Source of the DNA: Moniliella sp. 'wahieum'
Lineage: Eukaryota
Direction: 5' to 3'
DNA length: 55,565 nt
NCBI GenBank assembly: GCA_003971905.1
Contig: RSEE01000153.1
Location: 62,001 to 117,565, forward strand
Shown here piece after piece: positions 1-53,393 of this stretch. The notes beneath the pieces were generated by a model that worked only from the letters and a program-made list of their open reading frames with translations, made no database searches and was not told the origin of the DNA. The position numbers and the translations under genes were made by a program. The stretch's first letter is position 1, and the number at the start of each line of letters is the position of its first letter.

Positions 1-861
1 GGCCGAGAAGCGCTTCTCACATTCGACGCAGCTAATGAAAACGCACAACCCTCTCTCTGCCAGATGGTACACTCTATCAGTAGTTTAGACTGCGCCACCG
101 GCGGTCAGACAGACGGTCAGAGGAGCGGGTCAGGGGCCAAGGCTACCATGCATGATGGGAGTTTGCAATTTCAGCACCGGTGCAACATATATGGTGCACT
201 CCGCATGATGCATGTGACGTATGATAAGCGATAATCGATAAGAGATCGATAAGACCGATGATCGATGGGCTGTTAATTACTGGATGTGTGAGTGATGGAA
301 CTGGATGAGTGTGTTGAGTCACTGGGTGACTCGTCGTGTGTTATGCATGTTATCATGCATGTTACCAGTTACTAGTTACTTCAGTCCCTCCTCAGGCTGA
401 GGCCTCAGGCCACCTCAGGCGTAGGAATTCCATTGGCTTCTCGCCTCTGCTTCCTTATTCCGCATCAGCGCATCAGCCTGCCTGCCTATTATAGCTTCCG
501 GGCAGCGACTGCTGGCTGCTTGCTGTACCTCTGTAGGTGTTTTGTTGCTTGGCTTTGGCCACCACCACAAATGCGATTGCATCACCGTCGAGGGCCATCA
601 CATGTCACAGGATCCCAGGTCTCAACAGAGTGGGAAGTGAGCGAGTTCTCGGCCTCCGCCTTTGCCCCAGCAGTCTGAGGAGTGTAGGGGACACGACGAG
701 GTAATCGTGTTCGGATGCAGACGCGGACAGAAGGTGAAAACAGATGGGGGTGACCGGTGACCGATCAAGCTTGAAGCTCTTGAAGAGAAGAAAAAGGGCA
801 ACCCACACCGAACCAGGAACACCCGGAACACAGCGCAGCACCCGTGTCTCACAGCCGGGAC

Positions 862-1022
862 TAAAAGGCGAGGGAGACCAGAGGCGGGACTAGGCCAGGG
901 GATGTAGCAATTGTTCGTGGGGAAGAAGCAAGAGCAGAGGACATGGTGCGAAGCGAAGAACAGGCAAGGAGCGAGACGCTCGGGACGAAGAAATTGGAAA
1001 TTTGAACGAGACCAGCCAAACT
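862..1022. repeat. Dispersed ~160-bp repeat, copy 1 (direct copy at ~19943-20102)
   Basis: Collinear shared blocks: GGACTAGGCCA, TGTAGCAAT.GTTCGTGGG, ATGGTGCGAAG, GGAGCGAGACGCTCG.GACGAAGAAATTGGAAAT, CAGCCAAACT. Confidence 0.85.
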
Positions 1023-2944
1023 AAGAGACCGTGCTCGTCTCCGCACAAATCGGTTGTACGGTATGCCTGTTGTGTTGTACAGTGCATCGGACAGCTGAGA
1101 CGTGACGCGTGATACTCCACGTGGTTTGTTTTGAGAGCGCGGAATTTGATCATTCTTGGCCCCCGTTCCTCTGAGATCTGAGCGCCTGAGCTCCGCGGTC
1201 TAGGTTTGAAATTGAGCAAGCTTAGAGTATCATGCATCACTAACCACAGGTCACCGGACAGAGGTAACCAGTAAGTAGCTTGCCATCATGGATCACGCCT
1301 CACGGCCTTCGACCGCCCGATCTTTTTTAGGGCCTGAGCCTGAGCCTGAGACCTGAGGCTCAGGTCTGGGGTAGTGGTGCTGTGCGGTGTGTATAGTGCT
1401 CAACAGCTGAGCCTGGGCCAGAGCGCTCACGCGCTCACGCGTCACGCGTCACGACGACCCATCCCGCGGTCCCGACGCTTCGATCTTTTTGCGGGGGGGG
1501 GAGGCCCAGGGCGTTGGCTGACGCGCTGACGTGCTTTGCAGTCCGCAGCGTTCAAACCCAAGTTGAGGCCGTTCTGAATTCTAGTTACTAGTTAGGGCTG
1601 TTAGGGCTTAGCTGAAAGCGCCGAAACCAGCTCGAAACTTTTCCAGGCACGACCGCCAACTTGTAAACACCAGCCAGCGGAAGAAAAACGGCGTAACCCC
1701 GACTGGAAAGCGCAAGGTGCGCAAGTGCTAACCAGCAAGAGGCTAACCAGCAAGAGCACGCCTTCCAACAGTGCTCATGCATCATGCATCCTGAACGCAT
1801 AGGCTGCTCTCCAGTGCCTGAGGAAACTTGGGTGGATCCATTGAATGTAGGCCTCAGCGCCTCAGCGCCTCAGGACCAAGGGAGCCTCTTGCGGCCGAGG
1901 CTCTTGGTCTTGGCAGCACAGGGTCGCAGCGGGGGATTCTGGCCACCATTTGGCCGCGCTCGCCTGATTCGCCGCCACCTCCGGATAGTCGTGTGTTGCA
2001 GCCAGGAAACGCCCCGGAGCAGTACAGAAGCATTCATCACACACACTGCGCTAATGCATGATGCAGGGCGTTGGCCTAGCCCCGCTTGCCCACCGATCAT
2101 CGATCATCGAACGGAGTCACCAGCTACTTCTTCTGCTTTTCGCTCTGCCGTAGTTCTGTCCCGGCCGAGCAGAGGTGCGCGAAGGCACGGATGTGTGATG
2201 CATATAACACGGCACGCGTCACGGTGGCATGCGACATGTGCTATGGGATCCCACTAGCACTGCCCCCTCCTTCGCTTGACAAGCATGACGCGTGACGCGT
2301 GCCGTGCGCACAGGGGGAATATTCGATCATGTCGACTACGTATCATCCATCGTGGCACGCGATCGCATGCGAAGAGCACACGGCAGGAACCAGGGCACTG
2401 TGGAGCTGCGCGCTGGTTGCTGCGGCGGCTGCATGTCCCATCCGCAGAGGGCAACTGGCCATGCACACCAGCGAACCGTGGCTGGGGAGCACTGATACCG
2501 CGCGGGCACCAGCGCAGTGTGGTTCGTATCGCTCGTTCCTGCCTCACATGCACTGTCACCATGTCACCCTCAGGCCGGCAGGCCGTATGCGTCACGTGTG
2601 ACCCGCACCAGCGCGCTCTCTCGAGATTCGACCCAACTGCAGCAGCGGATGGACGCGGACAACACTGGCGCCGTGCGGGGCTCCGTGCTAGACACGCGGC
2701 TATCTCTTCGCGGGAAAAACCACATGCTCGGCGAGGTGCAGCCTCGAGAGTGGCGCCGTGCGGGAGGTGCCGACGCTGGGAAGACGGGCTGGCCAAAGCG
2801 CCAAGCCCTGGCTCTGCGTCTGCATGTGGCCTCCTCCTGCGTCCAGCTGCCCCGGGTGGAGGCACCGCAAAACCCTCTTCACAGCAGGCTGTGCCGAGTA
2901 CAAAAGCCAGCAGCAGCATCGCCGACGTCTGTCTTCTTATCGCC

Positions 2945-5026: not shown

Positions 5027-6196
5027 GGGGAGCACTTGCGCCTTCGCCTTGTCCCCCTTCCTACTTGTACCCTCATTTATGCGCCGACCTCGATTTTTGC
5101 CGTGCTTGGGTTGCCACTGTGGTGGCGTGTTAAGGAATGACGTGAATGATGGTCCTACCCGCTGACGATCTTTCGGTTTGGGACACATGTCTTTCAGTCC
5201 CTTTTCCCCTTACTACACTGTATGTACTACTTGTTACCACGAAACTGCGTAAATATCTTTTCTGTGCATAGTTGCTAGCCTTTGTACTGCAACCTCAACT
5301 AAAGCTGTGCCTGCGTCATCGACTTGGTGATTGACGGTGGATCATTCACGTTCTGATGTGCCAAACAAATACTAGATGAATATCGCATGTGCCTCACTTG
5401 CATTTTGCCCATTCTCTCCCGTGCCAAATTGCGCATCTCAACATTCGCCGAATCACTTTCAGGAGCGCGGACGTTACGAGGCGATGAGAATGGTTGAGCC
5501 AATATTCATGTGAGGTCTCGTAGATCACTCGATATGCCATGAGGCATATATTGCAGGACTACCCACTATCAGATCGTTCGAGTTGAGGTGAGCTCTCCAC
5601 CTCCACGGTGTGGTTTGTCCCTTGTTGGCAGTGTGGCTACAGACGGTTTCACCCTTGAAGATCCCCCCCCTGTAGCCTGCGTCTATTGTTGATCTGATCG
5701 GATATGAAAACGACGACTGCAGTGGCCACCCCAAAGCAGATAGAGAGGTAACCGGTAATTATATAACAATTATAGTAGCTTACTGCTAATCAACTATACA
5801 CATCAAGTCACTACTAAAGAGGATTTGCTGAATTCATCCGGAGAGAGGACGACTCAATTCAATCCGAGAACGCCACGGTAGGAGAAAGGGGTGACAGGAG
5901 AACCGAACGAAAAGGAACCGGTTCGAGAAAACATGGCATCCGACAGGGTCGGATGCGTCCGGCAGTTGACCGGATGAACCAAATGATTTGGTCGGTGTAT
6001 GCTCCAAAAATGGCGCAGATGAAGAGTAGGACGATAAACCCTAAGGCAGGGCCGAGGGAGCGATGTGCTCGACTTCGTTAAATCTTTCCTTCGGATCGCT
6101 CATCAGGAGAGGGGGTCCACTCCCCACATGTTGCCAACCCATTTGTTGGCGTGGGGTACACAATAGGAGTGTTGGACATCTTTTCCTTCCATACAC

Positions 6197-8013: not shown

Positions 8014-8650
8014 GCTGGCCGACGCGCGGGCGGCGGGAGAAGGCAGACGACTTGAGCGGGGTCATTGCAGATGCTGTGTTTCGTTTGCCGGCGTCGCAGG
8101 AATGAAGGCAGGCGGTGGTGGGGAAAGAAGAGGGCCAGATGGCGGCGTGCAGGCCTTTTATGCGGCCATCAGGGAGGGAGCGGCGTGGTCGAGGCTCAGG
8201 CGCTCAGGTGCCCTCGGAGCACTGCTGGGCCCGCCTGGGCACAGCGCCAGTGCCTGGCATGCGAGGCGTACTTTAGGCGCACACAGTGACGCTGTGCGGC
8301 CAGTTTGGGCTGGTGGGGTGGCGGCAGGGGGGCAGTGCGTGCGCGGATTGTTGATGTATGATGCATGATGTATGGATGATAGGCGATCGATAGGCGGGGC
8401 CCCATTGAAATATCAGTAGGTGTGATGCATGCGATTTGTCTCATTTTTGTACCAGTTGACCTGTTGGGATAGCCAGTCCCATTTTTGAGACACATCCTCC
8501 CACTCATATGCCTCCAACATACATCCTCTGCCGCAATGAACGCTTTGCTGTGAGATCTGGGACCGTATGAGCCAGTGACCGAAGGCATTTTTGGCCAAAC
8601 GTACCAGTCACCTCGTGGCTCTAAAAGGCCCAGCCTCTAATCTCTACTCT

Positions 8651-16759: not shown

Positions 16760-19399
16760 GGCGTCAATCGGAGAGGGAGAGCGTCGGGGATGTGCGTTTC
16801 CGACGGTTGCAATGGAGCGGTAAAGGAGAAAGAAGAGTCCGGTGGCCGCAGGCCACAGCCGGCCGTATCTTGATATAGCATGTCAGCCGTTGAGACGCAA
16901 TCAATAAGGATGGGGGGCCAGCAATCGAGTCTTCACAATCCAACCGGGGCGTCGTACGGTCTGCCTCGTCTGTCGAGATGAGCATCCACGAAAGGCGGTG
17001 AAAGGAAGCAGGGAAAAAAGAAGCGGCGGGGAGGATGCAGGGGAGTGATGAGGCGGGTGCGATCACAAAAGGTTGAACCGTTATTGAAGGGGGATTGCTC
17101 GATGAGGAGGTGGGATGTTGACGAGACCCCCTATATGGGAGTGGGAGAAGAGGCAAGAGAGAAAGTACCGAGTGGGTGAGCCCCGTTTTAAGGGTTTTCA
17201 GACAGTGTTTCGGAGATGAGGTGGGTGTGATATTAATACTGGATGCATGATGCAAACGACTGGAGACAAGGGAAAAAGCATATGTGCGTCTCTTGCGGCG
17301 GGGACGATGCCATGCCCATGGCATGTGTGTTCGCCGCTTGCTTTGCTCGCTGCGGTTCTGCTGTGCAACAGGGCTCCCTGAAAAACGTTGTCGGTGTCGA
17401 CGATTGTACTTGTATGTTGTGAACGTTGAACGTTGAACGACGTTGACGTTGACGTTGAACGTTGAGCGTACGTTGAGCGGAAATGCCAACGTGTCATATA
17501 CCAACCAACCCGAATGCCCCGTGGCCATTGTATAGAAGAGACAGGCAGCAGGGGCAGGGCAAAGGTGCCTGGGATATATCTGCTCCAGTGCGTATTTTCT
17601 GTGGCCGCGTGGGCGGGCAACGTTCTCAATCGAGCGTTAAAACGGATGCTAAAATATATGCAGCGCTGGCGCTGTAGGGTTATTTGGACCCTCCTTGACC
17701 ATATCGTCCACCGTGGACGGTGGACTGTGGACATGGGGGCGGGGGGCAGGCCGCGGGCAAGGTCAAGGGTGTCTGGATGTAGTAGACGTAAGCGCCGTTT
17801 GCACGTAGACGTTAGGTGGTATAGCTTTGTTTAGATCGTACAGATCACAGTCGCATTGCTTGTTAGATCTTAGATCTTAGACCTTGACGCGTCACGCGTC
17901 GCATGTCACATGCATGAGTCAGCTAGTCACTAGTCACAGGTCGCAGGTTCCCTAACCCTGTCGCATGTCACATGTCACATCTTTAGAACCTTAAGCTTTA
18001 AGATATTTGATAATACATGATGCTCGCTACATGTTCTGCATGTTACATTTCAAATCTCCGCCTCCTATGTATCGTCGGACATGTGAGAACTCAGTGAGAT
18101 CTAGATGTGACATGTGGCATGGGACATTTGCGATCTGAGATCTGTGATCGATGATCTGCATCCGTAGCCACGGGGGCACTGTGATTGGTCACCCGGTCTG
18201 CCCCGTGGAGGTGCTTTGGGCACGGCACCCCACTCCTGGAAGTCAGAACCAGGTCACCGGTCACCGGTCCCATGTCAGATCTCAGGTCACATATGTCTCA
18301 CGCATGCCATTTGTGGCAGGAACCACTAACCACCAGCCATCAACTAGTACTAGTAACTAGTACTAGCAACGAGAAACCAACAACGGGGTGGTGTGGGGCA
18401 GGGTCTGGCAGCGTGGTAGGTGCTAGGTGGAGGCTACGGGTAAAAAGTCGTTTACTCCCGTGAAACACATGCGAAGACGGGCTTAGCACTTGGCTTGGCC
18501 TATAAGCGCTAAGCGCTACAAACATGTAACAAACGCTTTTAGCGCTTTTAGCGCTTTTAGTGCTGGCCAGGGACTATGTACCAACTTCCTGCCGGGCTAC
18601 CCCGCCAGTATTCCCCAGCCCCGTCCTATGGGGGAAATCGGGGATCGCTGGTCGCCGATGGCCTGTAGCCGCTGGCAAACGCTGGCGATTGGCGCCTTTG
18701 CTCCTCTGAGTGTACTTGGCACTGAAAAATTCGGGCTGAGGCGCAGAGGGCAATGCAGCTGCAGGACGATCGTTGGAGGGTGACCGGGGAGGCGGTGAGG
18801 ACGAGTATCGGGTCGGTCGACCACCGAGCTTCATCGATCATCTATCATCGATCTTCATCTGGTGCGGAAAAGGGTCACTAATCACTCGTCCCTATTAGTC
18901 ACTAGTCACTAGTCACTCCAAAGCCTGGGAGAGTCTGGACCGAATTTCAAGCTTTACGCATTCTGCTTCACGTGGTCCGCGTTACGCGTTACGTTTGCAT
19001 GGTAAGCTTCAAAAGCTACTACAAGCATTATAAGCTTCCTCGCTTCATAGCTTCAGAGCTTCACCGAGCTACCGAGATCACAGTGATCCGGCGCATTATA
19101 TCTCGTTCTCGTTTTTGGCTAACCACGCCGTCCCTCGTCTTTCCGCCGCGCTGTTTTCGCGCAGATGTTGTGTAAGTGCTATATACGTACTCATACTCAG
19201 GACACATTCTCAATTCTTCTTGACGCTTGAAGCTTGATCTCTCTGTTGCTACCACCCTCAAACTCAACTTCAAGTAAGTGCAGTAACAAGCTCTATTCAT
19301 CAACATCCTTCATCAGCGCCTAAGTGTGTACAGCTTCTCTCTCCCCCTCATCGACTCATCCCGACGATCACTCTGAAGCTTGTTTTTGCAAACAGTTGA

Positions 19400-20102: not shown

Positions 20103-22558
20103 ATGACAGTTACTGCTTACGCCTATACCGCGGTTCTCAAAGGCTTATATCGCGACAACGCACTTTGCCCGCCACAGAGGCGGATTGTGAGCAAGACACA
20201 AAGGGAAAGATCCAGAGGCCCACTGGGCCTTGCCTGTGTGTATTTGTTATGCCATTATGTATAGTTGGCATGTCCACCTGACCTTCCGATTGAACTACAG
20301 GACCAATATCTGTTGAGAACTGATCCCTACATACTAACGTACCAAATATAACTTCACCTATGGAGGAGGGACTGCAGGTGACCCTGGCCTGAGGGATGAG
20401 CCAGTGAGACGGCGAGAGGTCGGAGCATTTGAGGTCCCCACTAATACATAAAGGGTGAATGACATGTGACATTTGTTGCGAACCACAAATGGGGGGGAAG
20501 CGTCGTGCAATGTATGATGATCGAAGATGAGGCCATGGGAGAAGAAACTGGGAGAAGGAGGGGAGTTGCAAGTTGACCCAACGCGCAACTCCGTGTTGTG
20601 TTTGGCTAATACAAGGTCCCTTCTCCCTCTTAGCGCTCAGCCCCCCCTCAGGGCTCAACTTGAGCCTCAAGCCTCATTAACCTCATTCTTTCTCATCGAG
20701 CATCGAGCATCCTCTAGGAGTTGCGTTGTTTTCCGGTTTCCTTGATGGCGGGACTGGCGGCTTGATGCATGATGTCCCTCTGGAAGTGTTGCTCGATGGC
20801 TTAGACCTGCACCCTGCACTGCTAGCCACTACAACTGGTGCGATCGCATCACCTCCCAGGACCATCAGGACTCCAGGTCTCTTCCGGGAGATCAACGTTC
20901 AACAGAAGAGAAGAATTGCAATGGGAAGCCCTGAGACCTGAGACCTCAGGAGGGCGCGATTCTCGCTGGGCAGTCCTACCACAGGTACGATCGAGATGAT
21001 CGAGAGGATCGATGGATGAGATTGATGAGATCTCAGAACTCACGCGCTCACGTACGAAATCTGAGATATGACATGTGAGATGTGAGTCTGAGAAGGGAAA
21101 CCAAACAAAGCGAATCTAGGAATATATGCCGCCTTCGAGAACTCTCGTTTTAAGGTTCCGACAGAATCCCATTTTGAATCCATCTTGCCCCTTGACGAGC
21201 TTGACGCGTGACGCGTGACGCGATACCCACGGCGGCAAAACCGGGGGTAGAGTGCAAGTCTTCGCTCGGCACTTTTTTAGCCTCCAAACACGGGTCAACA
21301 CTCCAACGTCGGATATACCCAGGAAGACAAATTGACATGGCGAGCGAGCGGTGGGTACATAGGAATAGGGTAGTGGAATAGCATGGAAACCTTTTAACGT
21401 GTGCAACCCCGGGTACCGCATACCACGTAACGCGTAACGGAGGAGAGAATAGGGCCATGCCCCTGAGGCCTGTGTGAGGCTTACCGGCGGAGCGCTCAGG
21501 CTCAGGCTGAGGCCAAGAATGCTGCTTGTGCACGCTTGTGCACATGGTGCACAAGCACATAATGGTAATAGTAGAGTCAGAACGGTGGGAAGGGAGCAGC
21601 AGGAAGCATAACCTTCTTTGTGGTTGGGTGTACCCACAGTAACTATGGTGAGGATTTAATACCAAATGCTCTTCTCCATCGAGGCGTACGTCGTACGCGC
21701 CCCCAAAGGACAGTGGAGGGGAGGGGCACCACGTACCCGGTACCATTAACACCTATACTATTAATAGTGGTGAGACAAACGTGGTCCCATCCGAGCCCGG
21801 CGGGACGAGCGCAAGGGGCCATTGTTCAACGTTTATCTAACAATCAAGTGGGAGGTCGGGGGCCTGAGGCCTGAGGCGCTGAAGGGTATAGCCACTGGTC
21901 CTGCCCACTCCTGTGAACTCAAGTTGAATGTTTGTATGAACAGATTTTTCCGGAGTCCTGAGGAACAAACGGGAAAGAAGGGAAAGGGAGGAAAGAGAGG
22001 ATGATGATGATGGTGTGTTGTACAAAAAAGGGACATGGTGCAAAGGAGAGGACCAGATGGAGGAAACGGGGGGGGGGTATGGGACATGTGCATGATATAT
22101 GAGAGATCTTTTGGAGGGTTGAACGTTGAGAGTTGAGAACTGAGATCGGAGATCGGAGGTGCGAAAAAGTGGTGCGATGAGAGCCCCCACAGAATGATAC
22201 AAGGACACAGGAAGGAAGATGCGGTGCGGGCGGTGGATGGATTGATGAAGCTGAAGGCTCGATAAAGGGAAACCGGTGGATCAGATCTTAGGGGCGAGAG
22301 ATGATCGATGATCGATGATCGATGATGGCGATGAAGGCATGGCACGGTGACACAATAACCCAGGGACGAACCCCCCGGATTTCTTCTCGTGTGTTACATG
22401 TTGCAATCAGTCCAAAGGGGCCACCCCAGGACTGGCAACGGAGAGAGACACTGTGGCTCACCGTCGTGTACCAGCCGTGCGAGCCCATCCCCCTGGGAGA
22501 GAAGACCAGGGGCTGGCCAAACGGGCGCAGCTGGCGCTTTTGTGGTGGGTGTTACATG

Positions 22559-25468
22559 TTAGTCCTGAGGATGGACAGGCACGGGGACCCTGGACTGGAA
22601 GGGGCGTTGGCGGAGGGGATGGGAGGGCGGTAAGAGGGAACCAGGAGCGCGGGCAGTCATCATGCTGACGACGGCAGTCGGCTGGACCGGAACGACGACG
22701 ACGCGCCGTTGGACCCGCTTGCCGGCCCGGTTTGGTGGACCGTCTCGGACGAAGGCGGGACAAGGGATGCGGTGGGCCGTGGCATGCTGCGAAGAGTATG
22801 GATATGGGTATGGGTACGGTTCTTTTCCTCTCTTTCTCCCAGCGAGGAAGAGGAAGAGGAAGAGGATGCGGAAGGCAAACGTACCCCGAATCTGCGGGGA
22901 GGAGCGGCCGGTCCAGCCCCGAGGGAGAAACTGGTGCGGCCGCATCCAACGACAACGTTCGGCTCCGAGGCGCCGGCGGGTCGATCTGATGGTCCGCAGA
23001 AAGCATGCGTCGCACTTCGACCCACGTCTCCTCCGTCGCGTCGAGCAACACACTCGCCACGTCAAACGGAACCGAATCGAAACTGGACGCACGAGCACGG
23101 CGCTTTTGGGCCACCAAGAAACGGGCGCGGCTAAGGACGTGGGCACGGGCGCCGGCACCCCGGCCGCTACATCGCCACGCCAGCCCCGGGGTTGTTTGCG
23201 GTTATTCTGGCCCGGCACCAATCCCTCCGTCGAGCCCAGTCCGACGCGCCGCTTTCCCATGCTCCGTTTTCTCGTCCGAGCTCGGTCGCGGGCAGGGCTG
23301 GGGGGGAGGGACTAGTGCAATCGTTCGTTCCCGCCCGAGCGTCCGCAGTCGAGGGCTCCTTGTGCAATCCGAGCCGGTGGCGGCCATGCAGCAAGGCGTG
23401 CATGACTTTGGCCGTGCCCATGCGACCGTTGACACCGGTAGCGGGGGAGGGGAGGCAGAGTGGGCTTGGGCTTGGGCTTGGGGTGGGGGTGGGAAGGAAC
23501 CAGACTGTGAGTACTTTTGGACGAGGGCAGCGGGCCGCGCGCCCCCGGGTCCCCCGCGGGCGGCGAAACAGCGCCAGCGGGCGCAGCATGAGCGGATGAG
23601 AGGCCTCGGGGGGCTGGAGCAAGGCGCGGTAGGCCAGTGGCACCGTTTCCGAAATGACAAACCATGCGGTGGCCGTGCGTGGGTCGGGGTCAGGGTCGGG
23701 TCGGGGTCGCGGGGCGCGGGGGATCGCTGGCCCGGCTCGCAATTGGCGCGGAGGAAACGTGGGCCGAGGGGGACGGGAGCGGTACTGGACCACAATCCAA
23801 TTGGCCGGACGGTGGAGGAGTGGGCGGGTGGGCTCCAGGCCCACCATCAGATAGTCTGCCCACACTTCGGCAAAGAGCGGGTCAAACTTACTGTACTTGG
23901 CCCAGTCGACGGACTGGTGGGGTCCATCGTTGCGGCTACGCCGGTCCGGGCGACGGGCACGACGTCTTGGTCGATCGCAGGCAGCTGGTCTACCAGCTTG
24001 TCCCACCGATCTTTCGCCTCGGTTTGCTCGGTTGCGACAGGTGGGATCGGCGCCGACTGGGTGGCATCCAGCGACAGACGGAGCGGATCGAGCGTGCCAT
24101 TGTCAAACCCGCCTGAAGCAAAGTCGGACCAGAGCATTGTGTGCGGCCGAGAGATCGGGTGGGGCAGAGGCGCCGGCGTTTTTGGAAACGGATGCGCAGA
24201 AGCGAGGGTGAGGTACTGCGGGTCGGGATCGGCAAACCCCAAAGACGCAAATTGGCCCCAGGGGTATTATGACGGTCCGGGCCGATCTGGCTAGCGAGCG
24301 CACGCGGTGCAGAGGGCAGGTTAAGCAACTTACGCTGCAGCTCCGACACGGTCGGCTTGCCCTCCATCCGGCGGCAGCTGGCACGCCCTCCACTCGGGTG
24401 CGGGCACGTCCATGTCGGCGGCGGCGCGGATCAGGTCCGGGCTGTAGACCTTGACGTTGCATTCGATGATCGTCACGGGCTCCAAGCGCAAGTGGCTGGG
24501 TAGCTGGCACGGATCGGGCGCAAGGCACTGCGGATAGCGTTGGACCAGCTCGGCGAGTCGGATGGGCAGAGCGGTTTCGGTGGCGAGGTGACGTAGGTAC
24601 GCAAGGAGGAGGTGCTCGGTGGCGTTGCTGCTGGCCACATAGGCGTCGTAGGTGCGCGGGAACGTGTCGTTGCAAGGCAGCCCAAACAGGAGCGGACCTA
24701 GAAGGCGAGCGAGACGGGAGGGCGTTGTGCCTGTTTGGCGGGCATACGCCATGACGGACGAGAGGAGCGAGAAGAGGGTGCCGAGCAGCGTCCTCTCGCT
24801 CGGCTCCAGCGCCTCTTGGAACGCACAAAACGCACTGGGCAGATACCCCATGCCTGCGGGACAACAGAGACGATGGTGGAAGATGCGGAGGAGGGTTAGT
24901 ACGGGCCTCTACTACTGGCTCTTCTCTCTCTCTCCCGCGGCGGATCTCTCATTGGGCCGGAGGGCGTGGCAGGCGAGGTTGGATGGGGCACACACACGAG
25001 GGTACATACGCTTCTCGTCAGCACAACGGTACTGGTCCATGTCCAGCAGCCCGTGGCGGGAGGAGTGGCTGGACGGACGAGGTGGGCGACGGCCCATTTG
25101 ATCATGGCGGCCAGATCGCTGGGGCTGGCATAGCTGGCCTCGCGGGCCAAGCGGACGGTGCGGGATGCGGTGGGAGGGGTGGAGGCGGTCGACCGCGGCG
25201 GTGGCAGGCCGAGGTAGGCATGGAGCAGGGCTTGGCACCCAGCTGCACTCTGGTCGAGCGCGAGGGAGAGAAGAGGAAGGGATGGCCAGGCCGGTGCGGC
25301 GGATGTGGGAGGCGCAGATGGCGACCACTTGCTCGGCGCGGGCGGGTCGAGCGGGAGGGCGGCGGCGGCGGGGCTGGGCGGGGGGAAGTAGCCGTAGGCG
25401 TGCTGGAGGGCGGGGGCGAGGGGGGCGAGCGCGGCGAGCGTCTGGCGGGCGGGCGGGGAGGCGGGCAT
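22559..25468 (-). CDS. Msb1/Mug8 (RhoGAP-like fold) domain protein; many indels, intron ~24855-24990, ends approximate
   Basis: RTGLAIP..SLALDQS..LLHAYL, SPSDLAAMIKWAVAHL, LFSLLSSVMAYARQTGTTPSRLARLLGPLLFGL..FPRTYDAYVASSNATEHLLLAYLR, WSDFASGGF; resembles fungal Msb1/Mug8 proteins as recalled. Confidence 0.65.
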
Positions 25469-27770: not shown

Positions 27771-28963
27771 GGAAGGCACACCAGCCCTCGCTCCCCGCAC
27801 GCCCGTGCCGGCCCACCGGACGCAGATGACTCGCATCGCGCGCAATTGATCGGGTCCAGCTCCGCTGCAGGCCCGGCCGGGTGGGGGACTAGATCCCGTT
27901 GGTATTTGGCCGCTAGCAAAGCACCAACTCACTAGTCATTCGTCCCAGGTCCCAGTCCCAGGTACCAGCTGCCAGCTCCGGCCCAGCCATAGTCCTCTTA
28001 GATTCGCAGGTGACAGCGTGCCCTTGCTGGGCCCAAGATCCAATTCCGCTGCTCCTTTGGATGCCTGGTGCGTTACGCGTTACGTACCACTTTGCGGGAG
28101 TGGAGTTCGGAGTCCTCGATTCGGTCTCAGTGCCCCGTACTCGGCACTCGGCACTCGGGACGCGGGCGCCCTCCGGAGCAGATGGCAGAGCGACCGTCTT
28201 GCTCATCGCGTCTACCTATCTACCCTCACCGGGCCCGCACGGCCCATCCGGTCCGCCTGCCCTCTACTACCTGCCTCCCCATGCCTCCCCCCATGCGCAC
28301 TGTGCGCACTTCACGTACTTCATCCGCTTCGTAGCTGCAAGAGCATCAAGCATCAAGCACCACAAACGTCAAACCTGGCGGCCCGGCCTAAGCCGCTTTT
28401 GCCGGTTACAGGCCATCTCACGTCCTATGCCCTCCCCTTCCACCCCCCTCCCCGCAAGGCATTGACAACCTGGATCTGAATTGAGGACCGAGCCACCTTG
28501 TGCCCCGCTCCGGCGTTACCGGGCCCGGCGGGGGCGGGGTACTTGTGCCCGTCCGTGGGTGCAAGCGTGAGTTTAAAGGCACGTTGGGCCCCAATCCACC
28601 AGCCACCCATGCCGCTCAACATGTTGGGCCAAGCAAGCCCAGCGCCAGTACAGGAATGGGTCGATGGCGACACAGGTAACGCGTATCTAGTCTCTATCAT
28701 TACTTCCTACCTCCGTTCCTTGCCTCACCCGCGTTTCCTCCAGCAGACAAGGCCGAAGCGGGATATAGAGAGCAACCGTGTGTGCTGCTACAACTCTCGC
28801 CGGCACTGCGCACAAGCCTTGTGGCCAACCCCCGAGGCGCGTGGATGGCTGGGGTACGAGTGACCATTACCGGGAGGGAGGGAGCAGGGGGGCACTTTTC
28901 AGGGACAGCTGGCTGCGACGCATGTGCGGCCAACCTGTCCCGGGGAAAGAGCGTCGGGCGCGT

Positions 28964-34822: not shown

Positions 34823-35156
34823 CGCGGCCGCAACGTAGACTCCCAGTAGGGTGAGGCGTGGGTGCGTCAGGCGTCAGGAGCGAGGAGGCGGCAGGGATGG
34901 GGGTGGCGGGGATGAGGGTGAGGGGGGCCGCAACGCAGAGATCTGTCTGGTGCGCCCAAACACACACGCCCGACGTTCCCTGAACGTTCGCCTGACTGTG
35001 GCAGATGATCGATGACTTATGGCAGCGCCTGGAGTGTCGATGAGCGCAGCAACCAAAACCCCTGATTATCCACTTGAAACATTCACTTGCACCCCCACCT
35101 GGCCCGTGCACCCGTGCCTTCGCAACCACCGGGATGGGTCTGCTGGTGCTGCCGCT

Positions 35157-35187
35157 TGCCGTCTGCCGTCTGCCGTCTGCCGTCTGC
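35157..35187 (+). repeat. (TGCCGTC)n 7-bp microsatellite
   Basis: About 4 tandem units upstream of NCR1. Confidence 0.8.
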
Positions 35188-35361
35188 TGTCTGCCGCTGG
35201 CGCTGTGTCTTCTGTCTGCCTTTCCTCCTCTGTCCCCACGGTGGCGTGGCAGCGCGACGGCCGTGCCGATGCATTTGTGTGACATGTGATGACGGTTCCG
35301 CCTCGCGGGTGCGCATGTGCATGATCCACGAATGGACGCAGTCCATGTTACATGTTACACG

Positions 35362-36223
35362 TTACAGCCCCAGCGTCTGGAGGCGCTGGATGCCCTGCGT
35401 CTCGAGGCGCATTTGGCGCAACTCCTCCATGCGCGTCGCGCCCAGCACTTTTTCGTAAAACGCCAGCGGGCGCATTCCACGTCAGCACCGACCATTCCAC
35501 CCGCTGGCAGTCCTTGGCCTCGGCAATCTTGCCCAGCTGCCGGAACAGCGTCTTGCCCACCCCCAGGTCTGACCACAACGATACAGACAAATCCAGAACC
35601 AAAACCAAAACACAACACAGACACACACACACGAGGTCAGGAGCGGCTCGCCAACCACACACGTCGTAGGAAGAGCAGAGGGGAGGAAGCAGACGTACTG
35701 CGCTCGCTTTCAGCGACATAAAGGTCCTCCAGGTACAGGCTTGGCTTGCCCGTCCAGGTAGAGAAGGTGAAGAAGTACTGCAGCAAAGGGTCAGTTGGCT
35801 GGATTCCGAGCTGAGGACAGGGCCGAGGTCACACTCCACAGTCCACAGGCTACGGGCCACGGGCGACAAATCCAACGTACCAGCGCCATGCCCACGGGCT
35901 TGCCCTCGTGCTCGGCCAAGATGACATGCGCGTATTCCTTGTCAAACACGTTGGTCTGGATGAGTTCGGGGTGGCCTTGGCCGCGTCGGGCTCCTTTTCG
36001 TAGATTGCCAGGTCTTTGATCTGGCCAAGCCACGACCAGGCAAAAACAAGAGAAGACAAGATAAGGAAGGCCACAGGGGGTTGGGTGGTTAGCAACAGGC
36101 GTAGGACACGGCCCACGTGCGCAGAGGGGGGGCACGACGCACAAAGCCAAGGATGGTGGGGATGTCGGCTGGTGTGGCCTCACGGACCGACACGGTGCGG
36201 GTGGGCTTGGTGGCAGCTGACAT
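35362..36223 (-). CDS. GNAT acetyltransferase, diamine/spermidine N-acetyltransferase (SSAT/Ats1)-like; 3 introns
   Basis: VREATPADIPTILGF|IKDLAIYEKEP..GKPVGMAL|YFFTFSTWTGKPSLYLEDLYV|LGVGKTLFRQLGKIA..CQRVEWSVLTWN. Confidence 0.88.
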
Positions 36224-36646
36224 GCGGTCGGTAGTTGGGTAGGCGGGAGGGAGAGGCGGCGGAGGTGGAGACAACAAGCTCTAGTCGCTCGACTGGCGGC
36301 GCCAGCTTATTTCAACCCGCGTTCCGCCCTGCGCCCCGATTGGTGACCGGTGACCATTCCATTAACATGGGCCGTTCGGGCGCAGTTGCACAGTTTTTCT
36401 CCGCTGGGGTTTTCTCCGCCGTATGGCACGACAGACAGCGACCGAGCACGTTCTTTCGACGCCTTTTCCTCTCCCTTCCGCGTCCTTCGACTTGCTCCCC
36501 CCCCCACCAGTTTCCTTGTCATCCGGGCAAGAGACACCGCATAGGCCTGGATTCAGCGCTCAGCCTCCTTCTTTGGGGATGACGAGCAGGTGTCTGGGTT
36601 CGTTTGATTATAAGCCGTGGGATTAGGCTAAAGCGCGAACACGGCT

Positions 36647-36672: not shown

Positions 36673-36734
36673 TTTCGCTTAGATGACCACATCACCCAAA
36701 AATGAGTAAATTTTTCCGAATATTACCTTCGGCA

Positions 36735-37032: not shown

Positions 37033-38865
37033 CTTAGCTGTTGATTGGATGCGTGCTTGTAGGCTTTCTAACCGGCTGGTTGGATGGGGCTGGCATCGAT
37101 CCAGAACTACTAGATTTTAGGCAGGGTAGGTATTTCTTAGGTATAGAATGCATTCGAAGATCGCTGGGAAGCGATGACACGGCAACCACGGTTAGGTGTG
37201 ACGTCAGACGGAAGCACCACAACATAGTAGAGCAGTGAGCGGTACAGAAAGTGGCAGGTTAGTATGAGGGGAGCGCGACTAGGGAGACGCTGGCCAAGTC
37301 AGCAGCAGCATGGGGTTAGCGAGAGACACAGAAAATGTGCGACGGACTCACAGGTCAGGCGATCAAGAGGGCCAGTAGCGAGGTCAAGCGGGATGAAGGC
37401 GGAATGTACACTGGTAGGGCGAACAAGGTTAGGAACAGCGTTGGCATATAACAGAGAAGGGACGTACGACGGCGAAAAAGGTCAGATGAGTCGAGGCGAA
37501 CAAGACGAGACGAACCAACCGTGGGATTCCGTGCATGCAGAGCAGCGGTAGATAGTGTCAGTGGCAGGACAACTCCAAGCGCGAAGTACGGGGGACATAC
37601 GATGGCAAGGCAGGCCAGCCAAGCGAGAGGACCTCAGGCGAGGCAAAATGGAACCAGACGGACAAGGCCGAAGGTGAGCGAAACGGTGCATGCACATCAC
37701 GCATGCTACCCACAAGGTCAGCAGAAGTGTGGGGAATGCGAAGGAAGCGGGCACGTACGATGGCGCTGCGGATCAGGTGAAACGAGGGCAAGATGGCCAC
37801 CGAGGGGGTGTCTGTGTAGGCGGGGTCAGCAACAGAGCGCTGGTGGGCAAGAGAACACATACGACAAAAGCAATGCAGACAGTGAGAGGGGGCCGGGGCG
37901 AGAGGCAGAGGGGGCGTTCACCAGCGATACTGACGAGGCGAGGAGGACGGAGTGTGGCGGGAGAGGGAATGGAGACGTACGGCAGCAATGCAGACCAGGC
38001 GCGGAGAACCGAGCGATGGGGACGGGACTAGCAAGGCGGGCAGTAAGCAGTGCAGGCAACAACGATGGTGATGTTAGTGGCCAGGGGAAGAAGATGGTGC
38101 TGTTGCGCCGTGGCACAGCAGAGCACTCTGAGATGTGTTGGCTGCAGAGATGGGATACTGGTTGCTGCGGGCGCAATGAGAGGGGCGGTGGTGAGGAGAC
38201 AGGATGCAACCACAGAGGAGCAGGAGGTTAAAAGGAGGCGCGTGTGGCGCAGCCACATTCTGTGCGCACAGACCAATCTGGACCACGCCAGGGGCCTAGG
38301 TAAGCTATTATATCTGTCTATTAACGCCACAACACTAGCGGCCCCCTGCAGCAGTGTTCAAGGGTCTAATCATCAATCAAGCTTCAAGAGCGCTCTCTTG
38401 AGTTTGCCGATTTGCGACTTGCTGTAGTACTAGTTGTCTCTGTTGCGACGGTGACTGGTTACTGGCTTCGCCGAACGCGACGCACTTGCAGCTTCTCTAG
38501 CCCCGAGGCTCCGCGGGCTCCGAAGACTGCTGATGCGCGCGTACCCGCGTAAGCCAACGACGAATAGCCTTGTCCAGTATAGCCCTCTCGTCCTGCTTCC
38601 TACCACCAACGCCTATCTCTCGCCCGCAATCGATCGTTTACGCTACTGTCCCAAACGCTTCAGCATTCATTGCGGTCTCCATAGCCGGGTGAATCGCTAT
38701 ACAGGTCACGATTATCCTCACTTGATCCATACTAGTGGCCTACGGTGTTACATCAAGCTTCAAGTGAATGGGCACCACATGACTTCTTATGTTCACGCAC
38801 GATGCACCAAAGTCCTTGCGCAGGCCGAATGAATGGTCAGTGCTATATCACTGGGAGGAGCTCCT

Positions 38866-40587: not shown

Positions 40588-40753
40588 GGACCGGATGGTG
40601 AGAACCGGAGGGTCCTGATATCCTGGCGATCCCTCTGGTTCCTTAACCTTGGTGGCGCATCCAACAAGCAACCCCCGCAAGATGAACGGTTATTAGGTTT
40701 AGACGCAGGGTTCCCCCTGTCCCAGCCTTACGCTCTGTCAATGAAATAGACGC
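40588..40753 (+). mobile_element. 3'-UTR fragment of the CRE-like element nested in the DNA transposon
   Basis: Matches the reverse complement of 8651-8810 (CTGATATCCTGGCGATCCC.CTGGTTCCTTAACCTTGGTGGCGC; TTCCCCCTGTCCCAGC; GCTCTGTCAATGA). Confidence 0.82.
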
Positions 40754-45437: not shown

Positions 45438-45850
45438 TGCGAGAACCAAATGGACATATGCATCGCGCGATGAGGATGAGTATAGGTTTGGTGTCAGTAG
45501 TCAGTCGTCAGTAGCCAGGCCATAGGGTGGTGCGCATCCCGGACCCATCAGCCGGAACCTCTCGAGACGTGAGATGGGGCGGTGGGCGGCGCTTTGACAT
45601 GATGCGCATGCGCACATAAGCTTCTTTTGCCGGCGAACGAGCCAGGTGACGGGTGACTGTCATGCGTCCCATGCGCACGGGCATGGCCGAAGCGAAGGGG
45701 CGGTTATGGAGTAAGAGGCCAGACGGTGAGGCGTCGGTTGCAGCCCCAAATGGATGTCGCCACAAGCGTCGGGTCTCTGCCACGGCCTCCTCAGCCCCAC
45801 TCCGCTTATCCAGCCGATCTACCCATTTTCCAATCCCGCCATGACCCATG

Positions 45851-45876
45851 TTTCAATTTTTCACACCCGCCCGTGG
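45851..45876 (-). repeat. Right terminal inverted repeat
   Basis: TTTCAATTTTTCACACCCGCCCGTGG. Confidence 0.93.
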
Positions 45877-47356
45877 GGGCCGCCGAGGGTCCCAACACTT
45901 TCGGCCATCATGCATCATGCTGCGTAGTCACCAGACTGACTGCACAGACTAGTGATGCCCTGTCATCATGTCGTATGTCATAGTATGAGCAACAGGAAGA
46001 AATTTCGGGCGGCAAATAAGGCGATCCATGTAGCCACCGCGAAAGGCCGACAGGGAGAGGAGAGAAGAGAAGCCCTGCGTGGCTTTTTTGCGTACACCGA
46101 AATCAGCGGCCCAATAAGGCGGGACAATAGAATGGGAGTTTTGACCGCAGCATACCCTCTTTGGGGGAATGGTTCACTCTTTCTTGAATCCGAAAAAAGC
46201 CGAGAGGACCTGCGGTGGATCCACCCGCACCGGCCATCTTGGCCCTTCTCCGCACCTCGGTCTTCCGACGCCGCCGCTGTCAGCCGCAGCACACAGCCAA
46301 CTAGTCAACGCACATACGCCTCACCTGTCACAACAATGGCACCCCCTGTCTTCCCACGCCCATCCGACCCAATAGGGTTTGCAGATTGAAACTTGAAGGA
46401 ACGTGGGCCACGCTCCACTGACGCTCCACGCTCAAACCACGCCAAACCACGCAGCACTCTCCCTCTCTCAATCCCCATCAATCCGCACGCCACACGCCCA
46501 TCCGACACGACCACATGTCCACACACCCGCAGTCTCCTATATCGACACCATCCATCAGCACAGTCTTCTGAGAGCAACTTTCTCTGGAACAATATTGGCT
46601 TTTTTCTCTTCTTCTGTATCCGTTCTTTGACGCCCACCACGTACCACAATAACCAACACGTCATATACACAGCGCGACGATTCTTCCTCCATCTCTCTCG
46701 GGATCCCGCGGCATCTTAGCTCCATGACATGAGACGCGCAGCCACCTTCAGGTGTAGGTGTGTTGCTGCGGTGCCCCCTGGTCAGTTTTGCCCTAGAGGA
46801 GATGTCGTCCCTTGCATACCTCGCGCCCAAAGGGCCGAGAATGTCGGTGGACGACAGCAATGCACTTTCATGGATTTTCGCACGTCTTCGGCGCCTGTCA
46901 CTCCTCTGGGTTGCTATTGGTTCCACTCGCTATACCACCGACTGGGCGGGAGACGACTGAGCGGGAGAGCGTGTCGTGCGACATCATGCATTGATACCTC
47001 ACAGCTCAAATCGTTCCTTGCCTCTCTGCCCAAGGGGCCCTGTGCTGGCCAGAGGCCAGCATGGGAAGATCCGTTTCTATAGGAGGTTTCTCTACAACGA
47101 GAAAAGAGAGCAAAGGCCAAGCTGGTATATGCGGGGCTACACCGTATATATACTCCAAGATTCTGCGAGGTCTCTATCTTTTTTCCACCACCACTCCACA
47201 TTTCTCCCGCCGTCTCTCGTCTCTACGCACAACCAACAAACACCCTCCCATTTCACTCCTAACACAGCCCAGTACGTCTCATTCTTCCTTATCTCTTCCA
47301 TCTACCCTGCTTTTTCTCGAGACTGATCAATCCTTACTTGCTCTGCACACAGCATC

Positions 47357-49516: not shown

Positions 49517-49750
49517 GGGGTGGGAGATGTGGGAGGTAGGTGATGTCCAACAAGATAGGGGGGGTGGTTGGGCTAAAAGTCAGGAAGGCTGAGTGGGATC
49601 AAATTTCAAACCAGTAACATGTCAACCTGGTGACTGGTGACCGGCAGGGTGACCGATGACTAGCAAAGTGTGATTATCTCGGACCCGACAGAGACGAGGT
49701 GGTCCCTTCGTGATACCATAAAATTTTGCATCGCTTGTTGCGGGGTATAA

Positions 49751-50292: not shown

Positions 50293-52668
50293 TCAGGCGG
50301 GCGAGGCGTCACCTCGACAGTGGAGGAGGATATCAAAGGCAAACAAAAAGGACTCAGAAAGACGAATTCCATCATGGACGGGCCACACATCAGAGCCACA
50401 GGCTACAGAACGTAGACACCAGGACACCAATGAGAGCCCCCAAAGAGGTGAGGGGCCAAGTTGGGAAGAGACGAAGAGGATTCCCGAGGCATTACTCGCG
50501 CGCCAGGGCCGCCGTGCCCCCCGGAAGCGAGCCGTATTTGCTGCTGAATTGTACAGTTTCCGGTTCAAATCGTCCAGCAGCTGCGACGCATCTTTCCTCC
50601 TGGCTGTCACCTCAACTCCAACCGATGCGACCGAGGCAGAAGAGGTCAAGCCTTGTCTGGACAAGCCCATCCGGCGCAGACGCGCTTCTCGAGAGGCCGC
50701 CTCAATTTGCGCGCCCATCCATCACATACTCTCCAATCGCTCGAATGCGCTTGCGCATCTCCCATCGTTGTCCTTCGGGGGGGAAACGGATCTTGCTGCC
50801 TGGCTCGGTGCGCTTGTCGACCTGGTACCCGCTTTCCCCCTTCTTCACCACCCCTTCCACCTCGACAGCCTCCTCCACCTGCACATCCGATGGTGAAGAG
50901 GGCAAGACGTGGGCCATGTGCATCAGGTGCTCCGGCAATCCCACTTGGGCAGCGGCCGCCGCCGCAGGCGGCAATTGGACCTTGGCCGGAACCACATCCC
51001 GCGCCGCAGCAGATCCGCGGCTAGTTCCGCGAGGTGCCTTGGTCGGCGAGGGGGAGCTTTCTTGGACCGGAGTAGAAGCCAGACTTTCTTGGGCCTTGGT
51101 CTCCTTCTCCTTACGACCAACCTTGCGTCCATTGGGCTTCTTATCACTCTCGTCCTCTTCGGCCTCGCTGTAGGTAAGGTTGGGTCAGTTACTTCTGAAA
51201 GAACATGAAAGAGAAGCGAAAAAAAAGCACAAGAACACAAGGACATACTCTTCTTCTGGGGGCGTGGAACGTTTACGCTTTCGTTGACCCACTTCTCTCC
51301 GCTTGGGCTCCTCCTCGGGGACAGCAGGTTCCTCCAGTAGATGGGCCGGAATAGGTTCCCAGCCATAGTTGCTGTCGCGCGAGTTCATCGTTGCTCTCCG
51401 CTTGCGGGGAGGGGATGGGAAGTGAGGCTAGTGGTGGGCGAGACGTTGCGACGGGTAGAGGGCCATTGTTGGGAAGGGGCAGGCGTGCCGTGGAAGGCAG
51501 GACAGGATGGGCTCCGTTGCCGAATGGCCAACTGGACAGCAATCTTGGCCGCCTCCAGCTCAGCTCGAGTCGCCGTACCATTTCGTCGAGACGCATGCGG
51601 GCTCTTCTTGGAACGTTGGAGGTAGCCTAGGTCGCGCAAAAGGCGAATATGCAGGTCAGGGCGGCACTGCTCGCAGTAATACACATCCGGGCACTCGTCC
51701 TCCCCTTCCATGCCCATGCAGACACAATGCTGCCAGCAATGGCACGTGTCGCATTGGATCATCAGTCCAATCGACTCTTCCTCGGAACCACAAATGCAAC
51801 GCGTCTCGCCCTCGTCACCTTCGCCCTCTTCGCCCTCGCCCTCGTCCCCTCGCCCTCGTCCACAGCCTGAGATACTTCCAAGCTGGTGTTCATGCCAGAT
51901 GCGGCATCTTGTGTGGCATCTTGCTTAGGAGGCGATTGAGCGTCAGGGGTGCCCTCTACCCCGTCCTTGTCAAAATGCTGCTCTTCCACCTTGTCCTTAG
52001 CGGAAGAGGTACGCTTGAATGGCTTGGACTCGGCACTGGATGCGCGGGCGGACGAACTGGAAGAGCTCGTATGGGTGGGTGGAGATAGCTGGGTGCGGGC
52101 CCGCCGGCGGGGACCCTCAATCACTTCGCCATCGCCAATGGTGGAGAGGCCGAGTTGAGAAAGCTCTTTGAGTGTCGAGGGCATCCGCCGTTCTTTCTTT
52201 TCTTGCCTTCGCTGCCCTCGTCGGAATCATGTTCGGATAGCGGCTCGGTCTTGGTGGTGTGGGGGGCAGTAGCGGCATCGCCACTGTGTTCCGACTGGTC
52301 CTCGGAGAGGGGTTCGGGCTTGGCAGGCTTCGCATCGTGTTCATCTTCTTGGCCCTGCGCGTGCTCTAGGTCGGCGTCAGCGTCAGACTGGCCAGGAGAA
52401 TGGGTGTGGACGGCAGTGGAGGAGTGATGAGGGGGAGGGGGGGGGCGCGGGCAGCGGCCGGGCAACGCCATCGGCCGTATCGGCATCGGCATCGGCATCG
52501 GCATCGGCATTTGCATCGGCGGGGGCGGACGCTGCGACGGGGCTGGCCGGCGGGGCAGCAGAAGCAGCGCGCGAGGCAGGCGCATGCTCCGACGGCGGCT
52601 GGGAGACAGGCGTAGGCTCGCGGGAGCCAGCAAGCTCGCCCCTCGAGTTCGTGGTCAGACGGCGGCAT
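50293..52668 (-). CDS. CTI6: PHD-finger Rpd3L histone deacetylase complex subunit, Cti6-like; intron ~51175-51248; indels
   Basis: [60 protein letters not shown]. Confidence 0.78.
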
Positions 52669-53393
52669 GGCAGGGGGGGGGGGTGGTGGTGGCAGCGGGC
52701 GGTCGTTCGACCTTACGTGGGCGAGCAGGGCGATTGCATGACAAGACCGACCGTTTCTGCCATGGCTTGCTGGCTGCTGCGAGTCTCTGCCGGCGTCCAG
52801 CCCGGGGGAGAAACGCCTGCGCAGTTCCGCTGGGCGGAATGGGATGGGCCAACCCCAGCAAGCCGAGGATCCCCCAGGCTGATCTGAGCAGCGCTCAGCT
52901 GGCGGAGGCCCCCCGCTTGCACCGACTCGCGGCCCGGCCGCCCGAGCCGGCACAGGGGGAGTGGCCGCCTGCCGGTGGAGTCTGGGAGTGCGCTACGTGT
53001 GACATGTGGCATGTGTCATCTGACATGATGCATGATGCATGATGCATGATGCATGATCAACCAACATTCCGCACGAGTGCGCTGCTGGCGCTCGCTAATC
53101 GCGCGCCAATCATTCTCGACGCGGACCTTCTTGAAATGAACATTCGATAGCCAACCTCCCGCGACGGCCCTTGCATGCGGCCTCCGGCCTTCTACGGCCG
53201 CTTGCTCGGCTTGGCCGCCGAGTGGCTTCAACTTCAAGCTTCAAGCTCCAAGCTTCACTAGTCAGTCCACCGAGTAGCTCGTCTCTCCTCGCCCGCCCAA
53301 CGCCGCCTCGCACGACAGCCCCCAACAGCTCACCCAGCGTCGCAAAAAGACGCCACCCCCGCTCCCACGCTTCTCCGCCCCCTCGCCCCCACC

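Follow-up and report, generated by a model that had tools for sequence, protein, structure and literature searches.

Non-coding DNA in a 55,565-nucleotide stretch of the fungus Moniliella sp. 'wahieum' (contig RSEE01000153.1, positions 62,001 to 117,565; this whole stretch is referred to below as the window) carries many short repeats in which a 4-bp palindrome is enclosed by two identical T-N-A triplets. Our analysis reveals that these repeats are a real, rule-governed, and lineage-specific mutational signature, and we read it, with moderate confidence, as iterated hairpin-type excision scars at a 7-bp target centred on T-N-A. The pattern had been noticed in a preliminary description of the window, and the eight example strings quoted there are all present at the positions given for them.

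The motif was defined as T-N-A followed by a 4-bp palindrome and the same T-N-A, and its background was taken from 100 dinucleotide shuffles of the window. We observed 64 cores where 1.82 were expected, confirming that the pattern is real, while the same architecture around control centres occurred at chance levels (A.T, 3 versus 1.79; C.G, 8 versus 6.49; G.C, 7 versus 6.97). The process is specific for a T and A centre, and T-N-A is indeed the special centre it had been taken to be. As had also been anticipated, T-N-A triplets are enriched at a lag of 7, namely at a spacer of 4 with the same N on both sides (115 pairs versus 28.9 in 50 shuffles); pairs with complementary N at this spacer numbered 22 (29.2 expected, 50 shuffles), and at the other spacers from 0 to 12 we counted 15 to 49 pairs, with the maximum of 49 at spacer 3, versus about 29-31 expected. 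Thirteen of the 16 possible palindromic tetramers serve as cores. The cores are clustered, with 13 in 0-3 kb, 31 in 17-23 kb, 5 in 35-37 kb, and 6 at 53 kb, and the density of scars in the window is about 1 per kb. The claim that the motif is scarce in exons held, since none of the 64 cores lies inside the Pfam-supported reading frames, which make up 14,183 nt or 25.5% of the window.

Period 7 is conspicuous among the tandem-repeat periods and is preferred to 6 and 8; exact tandem repeats with two or more copies numbered 93, 64, 52, 8, and 5 for periods 5, 6, 7, 8, and 9, respectively. The unit is an odd palindrome in some rotation in 30 of the 52 exact period-7 arrays (at least 14 nt), and T-N-A occupies the centre of 29 of these 30 units, as the preliminary description had it, the exception being GCACTGC at 11629. 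Period-7 arrays without T-N-A exceed chance about 8-fold (25 runs of at least 14 nt versus 3.2). CTGCCGT x6.9 (35149-35196, 87% identity), which exceeds all other period-7 arrays of the window in length, lacks T-N-A and falls outside the rule described next.

The flank serves as the template of the palindrome, and in 58 of the 64 cores the matching half stands before the first or after the second T-N-A. The smallest product is the 12-mer abTNA-b'a'-abTNA, in which five bases are directly repeated and an inverted copy of the first two lies between the repeats, abutting its template without a spacer. This form gave 82 hits (both strands) in 48 loci, where 0.27 hits and 0.27 loci were expected, whereas the best of the other centres gave 8 versus 0.57. 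Period-7 runs with a core numbered 48 at a length of at least 12 nt (0.28 expected), with a peak at 12 nt (16 runs). The rule-conform spans form two series, one of 12, 19, 26, and 33 nt (28, 4, 1, and 1 loci) and one of 14 and 21 nt (13 and 1 loci), and both mirror forms are present among the 28 single events, 12 on the + strand and 16 on the - strand.

With a 2-nt inverted piece, the left copy was 4 nt long in 5 loci (1.0 expected), 5 nt in 48 (0.27), 6 nt in 10 (0.10; the +8 class), and 7 nt in 4 (0.03; the +9 class), and no locus in the window had a left copy of 8-11 nt (about 0 expected). The extra base of the +8 class equals the base following the right copy in 12 of 15 hits, indicating that it was copied from the flank and is no random addition. 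Since the +8 and +9 classes are templated, the duplicated unit is 7 bp long, abTNAcd, and symmetric about N. The inverted piece measures 2 nt in the 48 loci and 1 nt in 6 loci (the +6 class; 0.7 expected), while pieces of 0 nt (3 versus 3.1) and 3 nt (0) are not enriched in the window. The usual product is one copy minus its last two bases and the other copy plus two mirrored bases. Non-palindromic units centred on T-N-A are in some cases duplicated perfectly over 7 bp, with 12 hits on the two strands (6 loci) versus 0.13 expected hits. The 14-nt class, a doubled palindromic 7-mer, comprises 13 loci versus about 2-3 expected from the 1/16 chance that a target was palindromic beforehand, an excess of about 5x. 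Single-mismatch forms number 4 to 18 per position compared with 82 perfect ones, a spread that reads as graded decay of the scars. The same process explains much of the window's period-6 and period-8 arrays, for example CCTGAG at 1333 and GCTCACGC at 1425. What is new here is the bounded left copy, which gives the 7-bp unit, and the excess of doubled palindromic 7-mers.

Other constructions were considered and rejected. A 5-bp target duplication with a one-sided inverted piece is ruled out by the flank-templated +8 and +9 classes. The joints predicted by a 3-bp T-N-A duplication with hairpins (TNA-TN'..) were not seen, apparent matches to them being identical in sequence to the 5+2 form with A as b. 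An apparent dispensability of A in the second copy (18 versus 0.93) did not stand out from the remaining single-mismatch positions (4 to 15 each) and is read as decay.

The window is fungal, as a Zn2Cys6 transcription-factor domain is present in the Pfam scan of its reading frames, and among named proteins its RPL18 is nearest to Ustilaginomycotina (Tilletiaria anomala, 80%; Violaceomyces, Exobasidium, Ceraceosorus, Ustilago, Tilletia, and Malassezia, 71-75%). For comparison we used 80 metagenome contigs around RPL18 relatives (502,860 nt, best identity 72%), in which T-centred cores (25) were no more numerous than those of the control centres (26, 29, and 33); the 55,565-nt window has 64 of them. 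These contigs come probably mostly from other fungi, the nearest named RPL18 relatives being mostly fungal, and the signature is lineage-specific rather than common to the sampled contigs. No look-alike stretches of the window were found in the other scanned genomes, and a search of the literature outside subscription journals returned no description of such a genome-wide pattern.

A spacer-free even palindrome is the hallmark of a closed hairpin nicked off-centre, and target-site duplications are recognized by a direct copy whose maximal length is fixed; in combination, these two features suggest that a transposase forming flank hairpins inserted its element and later excised it. From the grammar and the counts, which are direct observations, we infer the transposon, the hairpins, and the repair steps, and we hypothesize that the scars are probably, if by no means certainly, excision footprints of a DNA transposon with a 7-bp target duplication and flank hairpins. 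In the scheme we propose, a cut-and-paste element would insert at a 7-bp target abTNAcd centred on N and duplicate it, and on excision the transposase would close each flank into a hairpin. Host enzymes would nick each hairpin 2 nt from the tip, which is the usual position of the Artemis nick, to leave self-complementary 4-nt overhangs with the sequence cdd'c' at the left end and b'a'ab at the right. End joining would mostly keep one overhang and trim the other to the duplex edge, giving abTNA-b'a'-abTNAcd or its mirror image with a net gain of 7 bases; incomplete trimming would give the +8 and +9 products, and a 1-nt nick the +6 product. On a palindromic target both overhangs would be identical sticky ends that ligate cleanly into a doubled 7-mer, and the excess of the 14-nt class would arise because such compatible overhangs join easily. 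Each scar would make fresh T-N-A sites in the same register, where later events, with some slippage, would build arrays and chains, and an event at a neighbouring site would build TNA-b'a'ab-TNA-cdd'c'-TNA. The preliminary description had stressed that the 7-bp phase persists when the 4-mer changes; this is true (751-778, 22118-22158), but neighbouring events would explain the phase, because the new T-N-A sites arise in register.

Footprints of this kind should show two direct copies of fixed length, P nucleotides without a spacer, and junction diversity. We found direct copies of 4-7 nt with abTNAcd as the maximum, b'a' directly before ab in 48 loci, and left copies of 7, 6, 5, and 4 nt in 4, 10, 48, and 5 loci. 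The hairpin-scar idea put forward earlier (P-nucleotide-like excision footprints centred on TNA) fits every test made, whereas the families then named, hAT and CACTA, do not fit as such: in the part of PMC12730594 consulted, hAT makes 8-bp and CACTA 3-bp duplications, compared with 7 bp here. According to the consulted part of PMC5499845, hAT, Transib, Mutator-like elements (MULE), and RAG form flank hairpins, which enzymes of the host then open and which leave footprints on joining.

Several observations weigh against this reading. The product that keeps both overhangs, TNA-pal4-pal4-TNA, was found 0 times in the window versus 0.07 expected, and the drop from 4 loci with a 7-nt copy to 0 with a copy of at least 8 nt is weakly significant. 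The cut of a classical hAT element lies 1 nt within the flank and should produce an odd joint, and the joints here are even palindromes. When the 28 single events are written as abTNA-b'a'-abTNA, the central base N is G in 16, C in 6, A in 3, and T in 3, a skew that a fully symmetric model does not predict; in this small sample (n = 28), the preference for G over C would imply that the choice of the overhang to be kept hinges on the identity of N. The search for the element itself, which covered the 55.6-kb window, adds to these points. Equal 7-mers bracketing inverted ends numbered 21 pairs versus 15 expected, with none centred on T-N-A, and no hAT, MULE, Transib, or KDZ domain was matched by Pfam in the 132 scanned reading frames of at least 130 amino acids (23 + 109, from 161 listed). 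The sole DNA transposon in the window is CACTA/Plavaka-like.

The scan for duplications with inverted ends gave, as observed/shuffled counts, 263/199, 76/50, 21/15, 6/2.75, and 2/0.5 for duplications of 5, 6, 7, 8, and 9 bp, and a seed-based inverted-repeat scan of the window yielded no candidate element. The DNA transposon is 9.2 kb long (36647-45876) and has 26-bp terminal inverted repeats (CCACGGGCGGGTGTGAAAAATT, the same at both ends, then one mismatch) with CAC..GTG-type tips, a 23-bp subterminal repeat in 13 tandem copies (36735-37035), and reading frames on the + strand (41065-44960) with frame changes and one in-frame stop. A comparison of its protein with 1.84 billion representatives gave 36 relatives at E <= 0.001. 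Although none of the 19 relatives tested had a Pfam match at 0.001, weak Transposase_21/tnp2 matches in 4 of 8 and Atlas neighbours that are Plavaka mark the element as a distant CACTA/Plavaka-like family. As the scar-making agent it was rejected, because the CACTA/Plavaka group makes 2-3 bp duplications (PMC12730594, in the part consulted) and no target duplication is visible at the ends of the element.

One scar can be placed in relative time. A 180-bp solo long terminal repeat (LTR; TGTCACAG...TATGACA, 19929-20108) with a clean 5-bp duplication, GTTAC, sits within the one-mismatch scar AGTTC-CT-AGTTA, so this scar is older than the LTR insertion that interrupts it. Between the paralogous repeats 849-1023/19931-20103, 8911-9089/19502-19680, and 8651-8810/40588-40753 we found no 7-nt indels, the indels being of 1-3 nt plus longer ones (8 and about 23-27 nt), and no event could therefore be polarised within the window. 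Related LTR/retroelement fragments lie at 849-1023, 8651-9089 (-), 19502-19680, and 40588-40753.

An explanation without a mobile element is that a host nuclease, such as a domesticated transposase, cuts at T-N-A with a 7-bp stagger, that fill-in duplicates the 7 bases, and that the inverted dinucleotide is added by a hairpin or fold-back at one end. Any dimeric enzyme could show the specificity for T and A and the limit of 7 bp, the window contains no transposon with a matching duplication despite scars at about 1 per kb, and the perfect non-palindromic T-N-A-centred 7-bp duplications exist at 6 loci. However, plain staggered fill-in predicts such perfect duplications as the main product, and these 6 loci stand against 48 with the inverted dinucleotide. 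The spacer-free even palindrome, in turn, requires a covalently closed hairpin, and we know of no nuclease that combines a 7-nt stagger with hairpinned ends. With no candidate gene in the scanned frames of the window either, we consider a host nuclease an unlikely source of the scars.

Replication error is a less probable source, and one that we doubt strongly. Here a strand ending in ...TNA would switch template via the T:A/A:T quasi-palindrome, copy two bases back, and return, leaving a +7 unit that slippage expands. As no quasi-palindrome is smaller than T-N-A, no enzyme would be required to account for the site rule, and slippage does act in the window: arrays reach 4.7 units, and a mutated GGAGATC unit is propagated at 22142-22158 inside the TGAGATC chain, by which some array growth is probably due to secondary slippage. 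The roughly 8-fold enrichment of period-7 arrays without T-N-A also speaks for a process of this type. In contrast, the better-pairing centres C.G (8 versus 6.5) and G.C (7 versus 7.0) are at chance, which disfavours the template switching that the preliminary description had offered as a possibility. The return step would have no base pairing as a guide, and to our knowledge a zero-loop fold-back is impossible for a polymerase primer. The templated +8/+9 products and the sharp peak at 5 nt resemble the trimming of a 7-nt end, not a switch point. Finally, replication is universal, yet the signature is absent from the sampled metagenome contigs, which probably come mostly from other fungi.

The earlier alternative, in which a chromatin or promoter factor binds a TNA-N4-TNA dyad and the arrays are binding sites under selection, is very improbable. 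The cores lie solely outside Pfam-supported frames (0 of 64 inside), some of them stand in promoter-like spacers such as 53024-53245 between divergent genes, and we take TGA, TCA, and TTA to resemble bZIP half-sites. Still, instead of one conserved recognition sequence there are 13 cores, each dictated by its own flank (58 of 64), and 'any palindrome' is not something that a protein recognizes. The half-sites are arranged directly rather than in inverted orientation, scars are found inside the dead transposon too (38377, 38753, 42066), and their scarcity in exons is expected regardless, as +7 is a frameshift. The least probable explanation, an assembly or sequencing artefact, has almost nothing to commend it, since the pattern avoids coding frames, decays in a graded manner (single-mismatch forms 4-18 per position versus 82 perfect), and includes a one-mismatch footprint into which a solo LTR, bearing a 5-bp duplication of its own, has inserted, and we know of no error mode that writes flank-templated palindromes.

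Returning to excision footprints as the preferred explanation, we tentatively propose, as something that may well be the case, that a single hairpin-forming transposase with a 7-bp T-N-A-centred target, from a low-copy hyperactive transposon or as a domesticated enzyme, wrote the scars into the non-coding DNA of this smut-related lineage. If true, scars at the density of the window would amount to thousands genome-wide, the transposase would be a main source of the lineage's intergenic sequence and of a 6- to 9-bp tandem-repeat class, and the process would be self-feeding, with every scar yielding new target sites. If the footprint reading holds, transposon traffic without resident copies would be readable from scars, and such traffic could build a sizeable share of intergenic DNA and seed tandem repeats without slippage. 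The grammar would then document, in an unusually clean natural form, the opening and joining of hairpin-capped breaks in a fungus, with a 2-nt offset, one overhang kept, and one removed, and the 7-bp nnTNAnn duplication would provide a precise search image for the responsible element.

The individual loci illustrate these classes. Upstream of a PTR2/POT gene, a cluster at 200..2310 contains 11 rule-conform loci (230, 367, 598, 749, 1101, 1170, 1435, 1583, 1775, 2095, and 2286) and period-8 arrays of the +8 class at 463, 1425, 1517, and 1852. Within it, AGTTACT x2 (367..380) belongs to the 14-nt class and has a third copy upstream with one mismatch (361-380), while the chain GGTGACC-GGTGACC-GATCAAG-CTTGAAG-CT (749..778) changes its units in register and includes a +9 junction, CTTCAAG-AG-CTTCAAG, at 770 on the - strand. 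The +6 class is represented by CCTGA-G-CCTGA-G... (1333..1357, +), a 5-nt copy plus one inverted base that has grown to a period-6 array, and TCACGCG x2.7 (1435..1453, 19 nt, two events) directly follows the +8 junction GCTCAC-GC-GCTCAC at 1425. Further downstream lie the +8 junction TGTCAC-CA-TGTCAC (2554..2567, +), with a 6-nt left copy, 2 inverted bases, and an extra base equal to the base after the right copy, and the +8 junction GCTCAG-GC-GCTCAG (8194..8207, +). Isolated single events are GGTAA-CC-GGTAA (5747..5758, +) and CATCA-TG-CATCA (8359..8370, -).

At 17420..19240, 1.8 kb of non-coding DNA accommodate the densest cluster, whose 13 rule-conform loci include the arrays TGAACGT x2.7 (17420-17438), TTAGATC x2.7 (17863-17881), and AGTCACT x3 (18897-18917). 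Nine more rule-conform loci (20460..22561) occupy the second half of the 5-kb gene-free stretch to which this cluster belongs and include the arrays TGACGCG x2.7 (21202-21220) and GATGATC x3.7 (22300-22325) and the mixed chain at 22118-22158. This region also holds the +9 junction CTTGACG-AG-CTTGACG (21191..21206, +), with a full 7-nt left copy and 2 inverted bases, and GTTGAGA x2 (22125..22138, +), a perfect 7-bp duplication whose unit is non-palindromic and centred on T-N-A, with both copies intact and no inverted bases. CGTTACG x2 (28071..28084), of the 14-nt class, lies downstream of a Ras-family gene. A 5-locus cluster (35004, 35278, 35346, 36342, and 36553; 35004..36564) stands upstream of an NPC1-like gene and stops shortly before the 9.2-kb transposon on its left side. 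The single event CTTGA-AG-CTTGA (38377..38388, -) is inside that transposon, as are the events at 38753 and 42066, and CATCATG x2 (45906..45919, 14-nt class) is found 30 bp beyond its right inverted repeat. A single event, TTTGA-AA-TTTGA, is located at 49599..49610 (-). The longest rule-conform array is a perfect CATGATG x4.7 of 33 nt (53024..53056) in a spacer flanked by two divergent genes, one for a PHD-finger protein (-) and one for an M28/ERMP1 peptidase (+), and the doubled palindromic 7-mer CTTCAAG x2 (53232..53245) belongs to the 14-nt class.

The gene map of the window is a rough one, drawn from Pfam matches in its reading frames, and the G+C content along the window is 52-68%. It contains a PTR2 (PTR2/POT) transporter at about 3.6-5.1 kb (+), RPL18 at 10.1-10.7 kb (+), EF-G at 12.5-15.2 kb (+), and a Zn2Cys6 factor from 15.5 kb (-), followed by a stretch without a Pfam-supported gene at 17.4-22.5 kb. 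Between 22.5 and 34.9 kb lie Msb1-like (-), Ras (+), mitochondrial carrier (-), and NPC1 (-) genes, and toward the right end are the PHD finger at 51.4-51.9 kb (-) and the M28/ERMP1 peptidase from about 53.8 kb (+). The gap at 17400-22550, about 5 kb without a Pfam-supported gene between two - strand genes, holds 31 of the 64 cores as well as retroelement relics, and its length appears to us large for a compact fungal genome. Near the Ras-family gene we noted C homopolymers of 19 nt (26349-26367) and 17 nt (27029-27045), and a CCTCCCCA-type array lies in the same vicinity at 27647-27766.

Compared with known systems, slippage-derived micro- and minisatellites likewise form short head-to-tail arrays, but where slippage multiplies an arbitrary unit by whole-unit growth, the unit here is built by a flank-derived rule, 29 of the 52 arrays are T-N-A-palindromic, and the commonest form is a single 12-nt product shorter than two units (28 of 48 loci). 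Tc1/mariner footprints (e.g., TA-CAG-TA) are stereotyped few-base scars at a fixed target with an odd palindrome; their scar bases come from the transposon ends and are constant, whereas those found here come from the flank and differ at every site. Members of hAT proper have an 8-bp duplication, the target consensus nTnnnnAn, and a hAT transposase, and their cut has a 1-nt offset. The scars of the window instead have a 7-bp unit with T and A at positions 3 and 5 and an even-palindrome joint, and no hAT domain was found in the scanned frames. The PIF/Harbinger target is a 3-bp T-N-A-type site (TTA/TAA), so the target centre is alike. The PIF/Harbinger duplication is 3 bp (PMC12730594, in the part consulted), whereas the direct copy here is 5-7 nt, and TNATNA, the +3 form, is barely enriched (39 versus 29.8). 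A 5-bp duplication of the Transib/hAT5 type does not account for the templated bases beyond the 5-mer in 10 and 4 loci (0.10 and 0.03 expected). For the T1 element, the consulted part of PMC9942834 contains no statement on the duplication.

Duplications of 7 bp are described in Basidiomycota for hAT7 in rusts (Pucciniales) and for Kyakuja in Laccaria (Agaricomycotina), and these two share with the scars both the basidiomycete setting and the length of the duplication (PMC12730594, in the part consulted). Neither is reported from Ustilaginomycotina there, no copy was found in the window, and their target consensus and footprints are absent from the text and supplement of PMC12730594 that were searched. 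In the footprints of hAT (Ac/Ds, Hermes), Transib, and Mutator-like elements and in V(D)J coding joints, as in the window, two copies of the target duplication remain, together with a short, spacer-free inverted flank copy of 1-2 nt and one variably trimmed end. The duplication is 7 bp here as against 8 (hAT), 5 (Transib), and 9 (MULE), and unlike those footprints, the scars of the window occur at about 1 per kb, are iterated into arrays, and are centred on T-N-A.

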